Shown one piece after another: positions 7,009-59,700 of a DNA stretch of 64,000 nucleotides. The position numbers were made by a program, and so were the translations under genes. The notes below the pieces were generated by a model that saw nothing but the letters and a program-made list of their open reading frames with translations, was not told the DNA's origin and ran no database searches. How positions within the stretch are numbered: position 1 is the stretch's first letter; each line of letters begins with the position of its first letter. The stretch comes from an uncultured archaeon (GTDB lineage: Archaea; Asgardarchaeota; Jordiarchaeia; Jordiarchaeales; Jordiarchaeaceae), in the NCBI GenBank assembly GCA_964510585.1, contig CAZECW010000004.1:3606-67605 (forward strand). The letters are read 5' to 3'.

Positions 7009-7434
7009 CATATATTGACAAAATAGGATTACACTGAACCAGTTTTTATAAGTTTCTATGATAGGTAACGATATGATGCGTTATGCCTGTATTTTTCGTG
7101 TTTTAAGGGGGATAGCATATTATTAAAAAATTTTTGGAACACCATTTTTTAAGGGGAAAGTTCAAAAGGAAAATGTATAAAAATTATAGTGCATATCCAT
7201 TTTGTGTGGTAGAATTCGTCTGAGCGTAACAATTTATTTAGGGTATTTGGAATGTGCAGGGATTTCCGAGTGGTCAATACCCAGCTGTGGTTGGCTATAG
7301 GAGCTGGGCTTAGGACCCAGTGGCGTAGTGGTGTCGGTCTGTTTTGGTGGCGCCGCGTAAGCCTTCGCGTGTTCGAAAAGAGGCATCAGATTGATGCAGC
7401 TCGATAGTCACGCTCCCTGCACCAATTTTTAAAA

Positions 7435-38035: not shown

Positions 38036-39187
38036 TTAACCTATACCTATACAGTTACCTATTCCCGCAACAATAACCGTGTCACCGGGCTTGGTGCGTT
38101 CAAGAATCATGTTTTTTACACGCTCAGCAGCTTTATAGGCCCCATCATAAATTTCTTTTTTCATAGGCGTCAAAGCTTCCTCAATAGACATTTTAATTAT
38201 AACTGCATCCACAGGAACCTTCTGACTCGTTACCTCCTGCTCTATCTTAAACTTGTCAACACCCGGCCCACCAATAGCAGCCCCGACGCCCTCCACCACT
38301 TTACCAGTCTTCTCACCTTCAAATTTCAACCCGGCGTCAATCATAATAACTCTAGCAATTTTTCCGTTAGCTTCCTTAATAAGGTTAACAATAGCGTCAC
38401 CTGGCTTTCCAACTCGCCCTCCCGGGCCGATGGCTCTCACAATTAATACATTTCTACCCTCGAAAGTTATGGGAGTTAAGGAAATGTCTTCAGCAATTTC
38501 ACTGGACTCAGCGTTCCCATCCTTCACAAATTCATTTTTGAAAATAGAAGCAACAAGAGCGCCAGCACCGTCACCTATAGGCTGACCCTCATTAAAAGCC
38601 TTCAAAGCATTGTAATAGGCCTTAGCATACTTCATAATAAATGACAACGCAACCTGAATACTCACAATCATGGCATAATTATTAGTCTCCTTACCCATAT
38701 AGTAGAAGTGCCTAATAACCAGAAACATCTGACGCAAAGCCATAGCAGCCTCAAAAGTCATATCAATATTAGCCCTCTGATCACGATCAGCCGCAGGCGC
38801 CAACTTAGCAATAAGATCATCAAACCTAGACTTCCTCACATCAAGCAGATGTTCAAGCCTCTTAAAAACACCTGAAGGATCACGCTCCACAGGCTCAATC
38901 AAAACAAACTCCATATAATCCTCCACAATAGGTGTAGGATCCTTCTCCGGCTTACCCAACTCCCTAATCATCCTAATAGTAGTCTTTTTAGCCTCCTCAG
39001 ACCACTTCTCAAGCTGAGTTATAACCTCTCGAATCTGTGCCAAATACTGCATACTCTGAACTTTCAAAATTAGACCACTGAAAATCATAAATATAAAGAA
39101 GACAAATATCAGAATATTCATGATGAGAATGTATGGATCAGAATAGCCAAACGGCAACTGCAGTGAGGGAAACAACATAACCATCAC
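38036..39187 (-). CDS. Conserved archaeal membrane-anchored protein (DUF1512-like).
   Basis: N-terminal TM helix, then a soluble domain of about 330 aa with glycine-rich loops (IGPGGRVGKPGD, GAAIGGPGVD). Confidence 0.4.
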   Translation of the reverse strand: MMVMLFPSLQLPFGYSDPYILIMNILIFVFFIFMIFSGLILKVQSMQYLAQIREVITQLEKWSEEAKKTTIRMIRELGKPEKDPTPIVEDYMEFVLIEPVERDPSGVFKRLEHLLDVRKSRFDDLIAKLAPAADRDQRANIDMTFEAAMALRQMFLVIRHFYYMGKETNNYAMIVSIQVALSFIMKYAKAYYNALKAFNEGQPIGDGAGALVASIFKNEFVKDGNAESSEIAEDISLTPITFEGRNVLIVRAIGPGGRVGKPGDAIVNLIKEANGKIARVIMIDAGLKFEGEKTGKVVEGVGAAIGGPGVDKFKIEQEVTSQKVPVDAVIIKMSIEEALTPMKKEIYDGAYKAAERVKNMILERTKPGDTVIVAGIGNCIGIG

Positions 39188-39356
39188 ACAACACTAAACC
39201 TTCACATTCGCAAAACTACTAAAACACACACATAAAAGATTTATAAGCATTCCCAGAAAAACCGCCCTAATACACCCCTAAAAAATAGAAGACACCAAAG
39301 AGAAAAAGACATCAGAGTTAGTAAAAGACAAAGTAGAAGGTGAAAATAGAGGGATT

Positions 39357-39557
39357 GGTCCCGCAGGCCGGACTTCCAAATATAGTGTATGGCACACTAT
39401 AAACTTTGAACCAGCGACGTTGGGGCTGAGTACTATATGCACCCAGTTATCCCGGTGTCTGAGTGCCTACTGGGGTAAGCCACACTTAACGAGTGCAGCT
39501 CTACAGCCGGGCACTCTAGCCAGTCTGAGTTACTGCGGGTAAAGTTACTGCGGGACC
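39357..39557 (+). ncRNA. Candidate structured ncRNA of about 201 nt with a perfect 10-bp terminal helix. Family unassigned.
   Basis: GGTCCCGCAG (39357-39366) pairs with CTGCGGGACC (39548-39557). Internal hairpins ATAGTGT-atggc-ACACTAT and GAGTGCC…GGCACTC. An 11-nt direct repeat GTTACTGCGGG occurs twice. It is a GC-rich island in a 480-bp intergenic gap. Confidence 0.4.
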
Positions 39558-39665
39558 TTTGAAGCGGCTTTTTCAGGTATGATTCCTAGATGTTTATTGT
39601 TAGATAAATTTTTCGTATTCGCTGATTTGAGTGTATATTTTTTTAAGTGGTTGGGGGATATGTTT

Positions 39666-40550
39666 TTAGGTTAAAGCTTTGGCTAGGGTTCCTGCTATTT
39701 CTACGACGGATATCGGTGAGGGAATGGTGGTTGTTCCAATAACGGTGTAGGCTCCGGCGGTGTATATTTTTTTGAGGGCATTGTCTACAAGTAAGGGGTG
39801 GGTGCACGCGGCGACTATTTTTTTTGCGCCTTTCTTTTTGAGGGTTTCGATGGTTTTTGCTATTGTTCCTCCTGTGGAGATGATGTCATCTATTATTACT
39901 ACGTCCCTGTTTTTTACTTCTAGTTCTCTGGTTGTTATTTCGACTTCTGTGGAGCTAATTCTCTTTTTTTCCAGAACGTCGTATTCTGTTCCTAGTTGTT
40001 CTGCGGCGAGTTTGGCCCATTGTTCGGCTTCTTCATCGGGTCCTATGATTAGTGGTTTTTGTAGGGAAAGGTTTGCTCCTATGTAGTGTGCTATATCTGG
40101 AACCGCTGTGAGGTTTTTTGCGGGAATTTTGAATATTTTTCTCATATCGTCTACTCTGTGAAGGTGCATGTCGACTGTGAATATTTGGTCTGTTCCCACT
40201 GTTTCTATGAGTTTTGAAACGGTTTTGAGGCTTATTGCTTCTCCGGGGTTGAATCTTTTGTCTTGTCGTGCGTAGGCGAAGTATGGGATTACGCCTGTTA
40301 CCTTTTTTGCTCCTGAGTCTTTGAGTGCTTCAACCATTAGGAAGTATTCCATTAGGTATTCGTCGGGATTTAGATACATTGATTGCACTACTACGGCCTC
40401 GACGCCGTTGAGATCTCCTTCTATGCGGATATACTTTTCTCCGTCTGGAAATCTTTTGATTTCTGTCCCGAGGAGAGTAGCATCCAGTTCTCTTGCTATT
40501 TTTATCGCTAAAACATATGAGGAGGATCCGCCTATTATTACTTTATTCAT
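39666..40550 (-). CDS. prs: Ribose-phosphate pyrophosphokinase (PRPP synthetase), copy 2.
   Basis: VVIIDDIISTGGTI PRPP loop. Paralogous to 26403-27290. Confidence 0.85.
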   Translation of the reverse strand: MNKVIIGGSSSYVLAIKIARELDATLLGTEIKRFPDGEKYIRIEGDLNGVEAVVVQSMYLNPDEYLMEYFLMVEALKDSGAKKVTGVIPYFAYARQDKRFNPGEAISLKTVSKLIETVGTDQIFTVDMHLHRVDDMRKIFKIPAKNLTAVPDIAHYIGANLSLQKPLIIGPDEEAEQWAKLAAEQLGTEYDVLEKKRISSTEVEITTRELEVKNRDVVIIDDIISTGGTIAKTIETLKKKGAKKIVAACTHPLLVDNALKKIYTAGAYTVIGTTTIPSPISVVEIAGTLAKALT

Positions 40551-57816: not shown

Positions 57817-58560
57817 TTAAATTATATCCAAAATTTCTGAAATATTATTCACCGTATAGTCCGGCTTCTCATCATCACAAGTTGGCTCCCTCTCAGCGTG
57901 TAAATCCTTCCTCACACGTATAGTAATCGCCCCAATGGATTTCGCCCAAGCAAAATCATTCCTGGGATCATCACCAACAACGAAAATTCTCTTACCAGTA
58001 ACGGGTTGACCCAAATCCTCCTCCAAACACTGAATAAGCCTCTCAAGAAACTCGGGAGCTGGCTTACATACACCTAAACGCTCCGAAGAAAACAAGAAGC
58101 GATAGTGCTTCCCGGGCTCCAGCCCGAAAAGTTTCATCTTCAACTCAGTTTCCTCGTCCTCATTATTGGTGGCAATCACAACAATCGACTTCCTATTCAG
58201 CATCTCAAGCGTTTTATGAGTATCCGGATACGGCCTTGCACGAGCAACAAAATGCTTCCAATAAAAATCGTGAATCTTGTCAAGAAACTCTGAAGCAAAC
58301 CTAATCCCATTATTCTGCTGCACCTTCTCAAGAAATAACCTCAACCTAATCCTCTTATTATGCCTCCTCGGCTTAAGAGGATACAATTCATAATGCTCCT
58401 TCTTAGCCTGCCTGTAAAACTGCTCCATCTTTTCCAAGCTAACCCTCGAACCACAACTCCTACTAGCCTCCTGACAAGTCAACTCAAAAACCTTCCTAAA
58501 CGCCTCTTCCTCAGGAATAAGCGACAAACCCAAAGTACCATCCATATCAAAAATAACCAC
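57817..58560 (-). CDS. HAD-superfamily hydrolase.
   Basis: FDMDGTLG motif I with a GTG start at 58560, VVGDDPRNDFAWAKSIGA motif IV. The long upstream extension of the ORF is an artefact of the stop-free A/C tract. Confidence 0.7.
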   Translation of the reverse strand: MVIFDMDGTLGLSLIPEEEAFRKVFELTCQEASRSCGSRVSLEKMEQFYRQAKKEHYELYPLKPRRHNKRIRLRLFLEKVQQNNGIRFASEFLDKIHDFYWKHFVARARPYPDTHKTLEMLNRKSIVVIATNNEDEETELKMKLFGLEPGKHYRFLFSSERLGVCKPAPEFLERLIQCLEEDLGQPVTGKRIFVVGDDPRNDFAWAKSIGAITIRVRKDLHAEREPTCDDEKPDYTVNNISEILDII

Positions 58561-58599
58561 AGTATCCCCGTCCGACTGAAAAACGCCAGTTCCCTTCTT

Positions 58600-59700
58600 C
58601 GAGAAAACCACCGTAAACACCCTAAACAATTCTACAAGGCACCAAACACAAAAAAGACACAAAAAAATTAGCAAAATATCCTTATAAGCATTTGTATACC
58701 AAAAACCAAACCCGACCCACACCCCACAAAAACCCAAACACACAACTACGCTACAAGACCACAAAACAACCAAAAGCACGAAAACATAACAAGTACACAT
58801 AACCAAACAACACAAGAAAAATGAAACACAACACACCCCCCAACAAACTGAACCACACAAAACAAGAACCCAAAACACCCAATTTCCAACCCCAAAAAGA
58901 AACAATACAAAACCCCCAAAAACCAACACTCTCCTCCCAAAACAAAAAACATCAAACACACCACCAAAAACAAACTGCCAAAAACACCAATCACCAAAAA
59001 ACAGTAAAAAACAAAAAAATAATCACCAACACCAAAACACCACAAAAACCAAAAATAAGGAAAAACCATTGGGAGACACCGTGTACCCTAGGATACTAAC
59101 ACATGACATCCCAGGATAGAGCGACACGCCCTTGCCTCAGCCATGCTCTCTCATACCAGGGAAGCACCGGCGTCTCCCAAAGCCGCTGTAGTCTACCTGG
59201 GTAGGCTCCCCAATCATAGAAAGGCAACCGCCACACTCCTGAAGAAGCCCGTCGAGTAGACATTATCACGGCAACAAATGTAGCCCAACCCCTTGCCCTA
59301 AACTTCATCCCAACTAAAAAAGAAAGTCAGCCAGTCCTCAGAGGTGGGCCAACAATAACAAAAACAAAACAAACTAATGAAACTTTCGGAAAACAAAACA
59401 ACCAACCAGACACAACCCACCAAAAACAAAACACACAAAAACCACGAAAAACCCACCACAAAAAGTTTAGACAATAAAAACCCCGCCCCAAACCCGAAAA
59501 GCGAAAACAAAAACACACCACCACAAAAAACTAGGCAGCATCCCCGCTCCATTCACAGGCAGCCCCATACGAAAAAGGCGCCCCAACCCATCCCAGCCCA
59601 CCTCCTTTAGTTATTCTTCTGGGTCTACCCCCTAACCTGTTAGCAGAATTGGCTCCCCACACTTAACCAACTTATCACCTGACATTCACGCAACCCCTCA
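58600..59700. repeat. Low-complexity tract composed almost only of A and C on the + strand, nearly devoid of stop codons in any frame, interrupted by a GC-rich unique island (about 59070-59330).
   Basis: Long runs such as caaaacaaccaaaagcacgaaaacataacaag… and accaaaaacaaaacacacaaaaaccacgaaaaaccc. The island contains the stem GGGAGACACCG / CGGCGTCTCCC. Confidence 0.7.

Follow-up and report, generated by a model that had tools for sequence, protein, structure and literature searches.

Introns interrupt 92 to 95% of the transfer RNA (tRNA) genes in three complete genomes of Atabeyarchaeia and Freyarchaeia; more than half have several introns, many of them at noncanonical positions, and some of the genes were missed by tRNAscan and found only through structure-based inspection (Valentin-Alvarado et al. 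2024, Nat Commun, PMC11291895). We examined an intergenic element in a 64,000-nucleotide (nt) stretch of contig CAZECW010000004.1, from an uncultured Asgard archaeon. The whole stretch is referred to as the window, and all positions are window coordinates. A preliminary description had proposed that positions 39357 to 39557 hold a candidate structured noncoding RNA (ncRNA) closed by a 10-bp terminal helix. From comparison of the sequence with its relatives, the element is almost certainly a minus-strand tRNA-Tyr(GUA) gene of the Jordarchaeia/Freyarchaeia (Asgard), running from 39539 to 39356, with an encoded CCA end and three introns. It is a further example of the already published phenomenon of multi-intron tRNA genes in this lineage.

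The multi-intron tRNA genes of Atabeyarchaeia and Freyarchaeia come from the same or a sister lineage, and they resemble the window gene in having several introns each, in the noncanonical positions of those introns, and in being missed by default gene finders. The tRNA-Tyr genes tabulated for Atabeyarchaeia have three introns, as the window gene does (PMC11291895). The tRNA table for CP147778.1, a complete Freyarchaeia genome, lists a single tRNA-Tyr GTA, which is 125 nt long and has one 47-nt intron starting at nt 40 (PMC11291895). Like the window gene, this Freyarchaeia gene lies between pyrophosphokinase and DUF1512 genes, and its exon 1, exon layout, and intron at position 37/38 correspond to those of the window gene. 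It has the 37/38 intron only, whereas the window gene adds introns at about 45/46 and at 59/60, as well as a 15-nt duplication in the leader.

Multi-intron tRNA genes have also been described in Thermoproteales (Sugahara et al. 2007, 2008). For example, the tRNA-Pro(UGG) gene of Pyrobaculum islandicum has introns at 25/26, 37/38, and 56/57 (reviewed in PMC4090602). These genes share with the window gene the presence of three introns, one canonical and two noncanonical, and their bulge-helix-bulge (BHB) motifs are strict or relaxed (hBH, HBh'). As is predicted for the Asgard case, processing is by an (alpha-beta)2-type endonuclease (PMC4090602, PMC5829648). Movement of introns between tRNA genes has been proposed for Thermoproteales. 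The Thermoproteales genes differ from the window gene in lineage (TACK rather than Asgard), in tRNA species, and in intron sequences.

The tRNA in the window is interrupted by three inserts, of 44 nt at position 37/38, of 30 nt at about 45/46 in the variable loop, and of 32 nt at 59/60 in the T loop. When the inserts were removed, a 78-nt sequence remained (CCCGCAG-UA-ACUC-AGACUGGCUA-GAGU-G-CCCGG-CUGUAGA-CCGGG-AUGUC-GCUGG-UUCAAAU-CCGGC-CUGCGGG-A-CCA), which ARAGORN called as tRNA-Tyr(gta) with a perfect 7/4/5/5 cloverleaf and the T loop UUCAAAU. A regular-expression parse of the window and of its orthologues gave the following parts of the gene.

39356..39539, minus strand: whole tRNA-Tyr(GUA) gene, 184 nt, with C1 at 39539 and the CCA end at 39356; exons of 39 + 8 + 14 + 17 = 78 nt plus three introns
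39501..39539, minus strand: exon 1, tRNA nt 1 to 37, CCCGCAG UA ACUC AGACUGGCUA GAGU G CCCGG CUGUAG; acceptor 5' strand, D arm, anticodon-stem 5' strand, and loop with GUA
39457..39500, minus strand: intron 1, 44 nt, canonical position 37/38; 9-bp conserved hairpin, with a terminal UCAG that pairs with loop nt 32 to 35 (central helix)
39449..39456, minus strand: exon 2, tRNA nt 38 to 45, A CCGGG AU; anticodon-stem 3' strand and start of the variable loop, with its end uncertain by about 2 nt (intron 2 junction)
39419..39448, minus strand: intron 2, 30 nt, variable loop, placed at 45/46 by motif geometry; 8-bp hairpin
39405..39418, minus strand: exon 3, tRNA nt 46 to 59, GUC GCUGG UUCAAA; end of the variable loop, T-stem 5' strand, and most of the T loop
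39373..39404, minus strand: intron 3, 32 nt, T loop at 59/60; 8-bp hairpin
39356..39372, minus strand: exon 4, tRNA nt 60 to 76, U CCGGC CUGCGGG A CCA; T-loop end, T-stem 3' strand, acceptor 3' strand, A73, and encoded CCA

The spliced product has a 7-bp acceptor stem, a 4-bp D stem, and 5-bp anticodon and T stems, with 7-nt anticodon and T loops. The universal tRNA nucleotides U8, A14, G18-G19, U33, a purine at 37, and the T-loop UUCRAAU are all present, as is the anticodon GUA. A canonical archaeal tRNA-Tyr, that of Methanocaldococcus jannaschii, has in common with the spliced Jordarchaeia tRNA the C1-G72 pair, A73, GUA, a variable loop of 5 nt (AUGUC), and a 3' half that reads GUCGCUGGUUCAAAUCCGGCC...GGACCA. 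The two differ in the D arm and in the acceptor-stem sequence, and the window gene is interrupted three times.

Taxon names carried by homologues of the DUF1512 protein assign the window to the Asgard lineage Jordarchaeia, or Freyarchaeia. Orthologous neighborhoods were fetched from relatives whose DUF1512 protein was 79 to 100% identical, and the intergenic regions were aligned; further orthologues came from DNA pattern scans of genome and metagenome collections. The loci compared are designated by L numbers. The spliced forms of all 10 of 10 orthologues were called as tRNA-Tyr(gta) by ARAGORN. Among seven distinct spliced sequences, 147 of 147 pair cells were standard (100%), and 6 of the 21 pairs had compensated changes on both sides; four of these six lie in the T stem, and the acceptor and anticodon stems have one each. 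This pairing and compensation was matched by none of 500 shuffles, and slid controls paired at only 17 to 46%. The preliminary description had suggested covariation in related genomes as a check on its candidate RNA; the fold that covariation supports is the tRNA cloverleaf rather than a new one. Exon 1 varies at only two positions among nine distinct orthologues, and both changes are compensated. The pair C1-G72 and the discriminator base A73, which we take to be identity elements for the archaeal/eukaryal-type tyrosyl-tRNA synthetase (TyrRS), are invariant in 7/7 distinct spliced orthologues.

Orthologues with fewer introns were recognized as tRNA genes in their unspliced form. Rfam model RF00005 matched the one-intron orthologue L005 end to end, over model positions 1 to 71, with 51 bits and an E value of 2.8e-10 (gathering score, 29). 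With introns allowed, ARAGORN called L004, L006, and L019 as tRNA-Tyr, with a 37/38 intron of the same length as in our parse; it also called L014 and L020 as tRNA-Tyr, with their two inserts fused into one over-long intron.

The same conserved core lies between the pyrophosphokinase and DUF1512 genes in the relatives. Two blocks of this core are cleanly missing in L005 and L006, exactly at introns 2 and 3; once they are taken out, the 3' part becomes GUCGCCGGUUCAAAUCCGGCCUGCGGGACCA, which is the T arm, the acceptor 3' strand, the discriminator base, and CCA. Intron 2 is absent in L005, L006/L009, and L019 and is present in L003, L008, L014, L015, and L017. Intron 3 is absent, exactly at the junction, in L005, L006/L009, L014, and L019. 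In every orthologue that lacks intron 2 or intron 3, the remainder is a contiguous tRNA. Intron 1 is found in all orthologues, at 42 to 49 nt. Three introns are present in the window (which is identical to L001 and L002), L011, L015, L017, L003, and L008; two are present in L014 (Ca. Jordarchaeum madagascariense, DXJA01000190.1, minus strand, tRNA 5' end near 2775), which is without the T-loop intron; and one is present in L005, L006/L009, and L019. Because orthologues at this one syntenic locus have one, two, or three introns, they make up a data set, small but clean, on how tRNA introns are gained and lost in the archaea that are closest to eukaryotes.

L014, unlike all other orthologues, does not encode the CCA end; its sequence reads ...CUGCGGGA and then UUUAAUUU. 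A more distant locus, L020 (Ga0190361_1000600, minus strand), has a 49-nt intron at 37/38 and an insert of about 35 nt in the variable region whose sequence is unrelated to that of the other orthologues. This insert failed the BHB test in a fixed register. Its sequence suggests an intron that was independently acquired, or replaced, at the same site.

Introns 2 and 3 are recognizably homologous between L008 and the clade that includes the window. In rough neighbor-joining trees built from the two flanking proteins (DUF1512 and pyrophosphokinase), one-intron and two-intron lineages lie between L008 and the window clade. Several precise intron losses within one archaeal family would be the simplest reading of these weak trees.

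The pattern scans also returned contigs from outside the family. The exact 21-nt D-arm string TAACTCAGACTGGCTAGAGTG occurs in L012, L013, L016, L018, and L023, which are Thermoplasmata and Methanocellales contigs with a tRNA-Tyr(GUA)-like sequence and a single insert in the anticodon loop. Bacterial contigs that match the same string (L010, L021, L022, and others) carry unrelated tRNAs.

Each intron boundary was compared with a BHB model that comprises an outer helix (h), a central helix (H) of 4 bp, and an inner helix (h') on the intron side; each strand has a 3-nt bulge 3' of H, and the cut falls after the second bulge base. Intron 3 has a canonical motif, in which h is the 5-bp T stem, H is UUCA(54-57)/UGGA with 4 bp, and the bulges are AA^G and AG^U, the caret marking the cut. 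Its inner helix consists of two U-U mismatches followed by an 8-bp hairpin. The H strand reads UGAA in orthologues, and H is 100% paired in five of five distinct carriers.

The other two motifs are relaxed. At intron 1, h is the 5-bp anticodon stem, H is CUGU/UCAG with 3 bp and a U-U mismatch, and the bulges are AG^A and AC^A; H is perfect in L006 (ACAG, 4 bp). In the 9-bp hairpin of intron 1, all pairs form across the orthologues (100%); one pair is compensated, and another changes on one side. At intron 2, H is CGGG(40-43)/CCCA, which gives 3 bp in the window; L008 and L014 have CCCG and reach 4 bp. The bulges of intron 2 are AU^A and AC^G, and its 8-bp hairpin is 89% paired. Motif geometry places intron 2 at 45/46, and this position is uncertain by about 2 nt, with 43/44 and 44/45 also allowed by the sequence alone. 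Therefore, the mature variable loop would read either AUGUC or ACGUC. Both loops are found among orthologues that lack intron 2.

Positions 45/46 and 59/60 are published sites of noncanonical archaeal introns (PMC4090602). Asgard archaea are reported to have an (alpha-beta)2 EndA endonuclease of broad specificity with an L1 loop (PMC5829648), and two K01170 endonuclease genes are listed for Atabeyarchaeia-1. A short-query blastn search with the introns within the 64-kb window returned self-matches only, with no sign of a mobile intron family there.

Two features of intron 1 extend beyond its BHB motif. Its 3' part at 39457-39475 (minus strand), CCCCAGUAGGCACUCAGAC, resembles tRNA nt 2 to 17, CCGCAGUAACUCAGAC; the two agree at 15 of 16 aligned bases in an alignment that has a single 3-nt gap (shuffle P value, about 0.02). 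On statistics that are suggestive only, this similarity to the tRNA 5' end could be the remnant of a partial duplication or a folding aid. In addition, the intron contains GGCACUC, which is complementary to exon nt 22 to 28 (GAGUGCC). The resulting helix is part of the minimum-free-energy (MFE) structure, and the motif is conserved in all orthologues, with L014 having GACACUC. A C/D-box guide RNA within intron 1, as in euryarchaeal tRNA-Trp introns, was considered and dropped, as neither a UGAUGA nor a CUGA box occurs in the intron.

The 10-bp helix on which the ncRNA proposal was built is real. The sequence GGTCCCGCAG at 39357-39366 and CTGCGGGACC at 39548-39557 form a perfect 10-nt inverted repeat with a spacing of 181 nt. 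The arm at 39357-39366 reads CUGCGGGACC in the minus-strand RNA and lies in exon 4, where it comprises the acceptor 3' strand plus A73, C74, and C75. The arm at 39548-39557 is not the true acceptor 5' strand. It belongs to a copy of the tRNA 5' end in the leader, which reads GGU-CCCGCAGUAACU-UUA and runs directly into the real CCCGCAGUAACU.... The direct repeat at that end of the element was also correctly noticed, with the amendment that it is 12 nt long rather than 11 (AGTTACTGCGGG at 39528-39539 and at 39543-39554).

The duplicated unit of 15 nt is present in the window, L001, and L002; L011 (JAUQZE020000422.1) has it with one substitution, some 18 nt upstream of the 5' end of the tRNA. It is absent from L015, L017, L003, and L008, which have GGU or GU directly before C1. 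In the close relatives L015 and L017, GGU abuts C1, and the same 10-bp helix is formed by the acceptor stem and three leader bases. What was described as the closed architecture of a new RNA is a tRNA acceptor stem lengthened by pairing with the leader. We also considered whether the 15-nt repeat might be a fourth intron. In a BHB motif, the 4-mers that precede the two cuts have to pair with each other; here the repeat makes them identical, so that a self-complementary 4-mer would be needed, and CCCGCAGUAACU has none; therefore, the repeat is a duplication in the leader and not an intron.

Other features listed for the candidate RNA proved to be accurate observations, and they are nonrandom because they are parts of a tRNA gene. 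The nested hairpins exist; they are the D and anticodon arms of the tRNA together with one hairpin from each of the three introns. In 100-nt windows the GC content is 0.49 to 0.55 within the element and 0.33 to 0.37 in the spacer on both sides. The open reading frames (ORFs) that overlap the element are only mechanical (40 to 54 amino acids), in keeping with the claim that it is noncoding. The boundaries needed correction. The gene runs from 39539 to 39356, so that the outermost 18 nt on the high-coordinate side belong to the 5' leader, and the low end shifts by one base because base 39356 completes the encoded CCA.

Folding predictions favor the minus strand. The minus-strand fold has a predicted energy of -86.5 kcal/mol (z = -5.1) and a centroid that coincides with the MFE structure. 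The plus strand reaches -76 kcal/mol, and its centroid is far from the MFE structure. An RNA from the plus strand was dropped in favor of the minus strand in view of this weak fold (z = -2.4); the functional strand is, by these models, the minus strand.

The expectation of a structured, noncoding RNA gene in this gap was borne out, with the difference that the gene encodes a tRNA. The proposal in its specific form was a new structured ncRNA of about 200 nt, of the small RNase P or signal recognition particle (SRP) RNA type and closed by the 10-bp helix. The helix exists, both strands fold better than shuffled sequence, and the minus-strand strings GGAAGUCCGG and GGCUUAC superficially resemble the strands of the RNase P P4 helix. 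However, no RNase P or SRP model matched in Rfam, even at E values up to 10, and the conserved motifs of these RNAs are missing, as the preliminary description had itself remarked. The Rfam search that it recommended gave no match at the gathering score across the window and nothing relevant at the locus at E values up to 10. The string GGAAGUCCGG is the 3' end of intron 3 plus the T stem; it reads UGAAAGUCCGG or CUGAAUCUCCGAC in orthologues and is absent from those without intron 3. The helix depends on the leader duplication, which is absent from the closest relatives L015 and L017, and tRNA exons, introns, and leader account for every base. On the opposite strand to the one described, the sequence consists of four tRNA-Tyr(GUA) exons and three introns, and we consider an RNase P-like or SRP-like RNA exceedingly improbable.

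A minimal or circularly permuted RNase P RNA was also considered, from the strings GGAAGUCCGGCC, close to the 3' end, and GGCUUAC, midway along the element, and was rejected for want of an Rfam match. The P4-like strings are the junction of intron 3 with the T stem and part of the intron 1 hairpin, and they are not conserved as motifs.

Several points weigh against the identification as a functional tRNA-Tyr gene. The raw window sequence was recognized neither by ARAGORN, with or without introns, nor by Rfam, and neither a T-arm regular expression nor ARAGORN -i found anything in the window. The raw gene escapes standard tRNA and Rfam scans because three short introns split it. Recognition therefore hinges on manual removal of the inserts, although orthologues without the introns fix the junctions independently. 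In the window, the central helix of intron 1 is broken by a U-U mismatch, and its h' does not exceed 2 bp. For intron 2, H includes a C-A mismatch, a canonical outer helix is missing, and nt 40 to 43, which H uses, compete with the anticodon stem. The leader decoy can form a 10-bp helix that is stronger than the true 7-bp acceptor stem and is used in the predicted MFE structure, and it could in principle misdirect processing.

These points might be taken to indicate a dead tRNA-Tyr gene, which three insertions and a duplication at the 5' end would have turned into a pseudogene that yields no functional tRNA. Failure of the raw sequence in standard tRNA finders, the imperfect motifs of introns 1 and 2 in the window, and a leader decoy that could misdirect folding would all be in line with such decay. 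However, the gene has intact exons that match those of L015, L017, and L003 at every base, and the stem changes in orthologues are all compensated. Every insert lies in a BHB-like context, the helices involved are kept across species, and the promoter block is conserved. Moreover, the syntenic orthologue is the sole tRNA-Tyr listed in a complete Freyarchaeia genome. A DNA pattern scan of the genome collection showed that L006 is identical to L009, which is CP147778.1, and our parse of L006 agrees exactly with the published entry (39-nt exon 1, 47-nt intron, 125 nt in total). Because the only tRNA-Tyr listed for that genome is the syntenic orthologue, the window locus is very likely the essential tRNA-Tyr gene, judged from synteny and sequence. 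A pseudogene is very unlikely.

The intergenic gap that holds the tRNA gene is bounded by DUF1512 (38036-39187) and ribose-phosphate pyrophosphokinase (39666-40550), both encoded on the minus strand. The gap, put earlier at 480 bp, exists and measures exactly 478 bp (39188-39665). In addition to the tRNA it contains the following features.

39540..39557, minus strand: proximal 5' leader with the 15-nt tandem duplication, GGU + CCCGCAGUAACU (copy of tRNA nt 1 to 12) + UUA
39576..39618, minus strand: putative promoter block, with the B recognition element (BRE)/TATA-like sequence CGAAAAATTTATCT at 39602-39615
39303..39346, minus strand: T-rich trailer, a probable oligo-T terminator, with RNA U runs at 39343-39346, 39323-39326, and 39303-39307
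39238..39254, minus strand: second conserved promoter-like block, putatively serving DUF1512, GGGAATGCTTATAAATC, conserved in the intergenic alignment

The upstream promoter-like block, ATACGAAAAATTTATCT..., is the longest invariant run of the intergenic alignment outside the tRNA exons and is found upstream of every Jordarchaeia/Freyarchaeia orthologue. T-rich trailers follow the tRNA in all orthologues. The separate conserved promoter-like block before DUF1512 would mark the tRNA as its own transcription unit; together with the upstream promoter block and the T-rich trailer, it suggests that the tRNA is transcribed independently of both neighbors.

These flanking elements also bear on whether the element is a cis-regulatory structure, either a 5' leader (riboswitch or attenuator) of DUF1512 or a structure in the 3' untranslated region of the pyrophosphokinase gene. 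Its location between both neighbors, on the same strand, would suit either role. However, it has its own conserved BRE/TATA block, and several U runs follow it before the separate conserved TATA-like block that precedes DUF1512. No riboswitch family matched, and the sequence is that of a tRNA. We give a cis-regulatory role next to no credence.

Expression of the tRNA-Tyr(GUA) gene would begin at its own BRE/TATA promoter, about 63 to 76 nt upstream, which would drive a precursor that bears a leader at its 5' end and a U-rich trailer. RNase P would remove the leader, and the archaeal tRNA-splicing endonuclease would cleave the BHB motifs around the introns at 37/38, about 45/46, and 59/60. An RNA ligase would then join the four exons into a 78-nt tRNA with C1-G72, A73, the anticodon GUA, and a genome-encoded CCA, which TyrRS would charge. 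The order and the chemistry of these steps are likewise predictions from the gene sequence.

A broader reading, on how the gene evolves and is processed rather than on what it is, joins several of these observations. In it, the locus records repeated, recent, and exact intron loss or transfer in one Asgard family, intron 1 acts in cis, and the leader decoy adds a further layer. Pairing of GGCACUC with exon nt 22 to 28 may free nt 40 to 43 for the splicing helix of intron 2, giving an ordered, intron-assisted splicing, and the decoy in the window and L011 would compete with the true acceptor strand for the 3' end. As a whole this combination is unlikely to be right, with a small but real chance in its favor.

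The window contains a second hidden gene, a tRNA-Leu(UAG) at 7256-7424 (plus strand), which is 169 nt long with an encoded CCA and was missed by both ARAGORN and Rfam. It was found only by scanning GC-rich gaps free of ORFs. It has three noncanonical inserts and no intron at 37/38: one in the D loop (7280-7299), one in the loop of the variable arm (7326-7357), and one in the T loop at 59/60 (7378-7407). The spliced product is 87 nt long, and ARAGORN called it as tRNA-Leu(tag). At the T-loop insert the BHB motif is near-canonical: the T stem serves as outer helix, the central helix has 3 of 4 bp, and the bulges are AA^A and AG^U; the D-loop and variable-arm inserts did not fit the strict BHB register.

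The annotation lesson is that GC-rich, ORF-free islands in this Asgard lineage are likely to be multi-intron tRNA genes missed by ARAGORN and Rfam, and the window holds at least two. When such genes go unannotated, the tRNA set seems incomplete, and their sequences invite false claims of new ncRNAs.

A further gap, at 59120-59635, is 516 bp without an ORF of at least 100 codons in any frame; it is C/A-rich on the plus strand, with local GC content up to 0.64, and had no Rfam match at E values up to 1. In the neighboring ORF at 57817-58959 (minus strand), the N-terminal part is odd in being rich in Cys, Val, and Phe, and it may reflect an over-extended ORF call.

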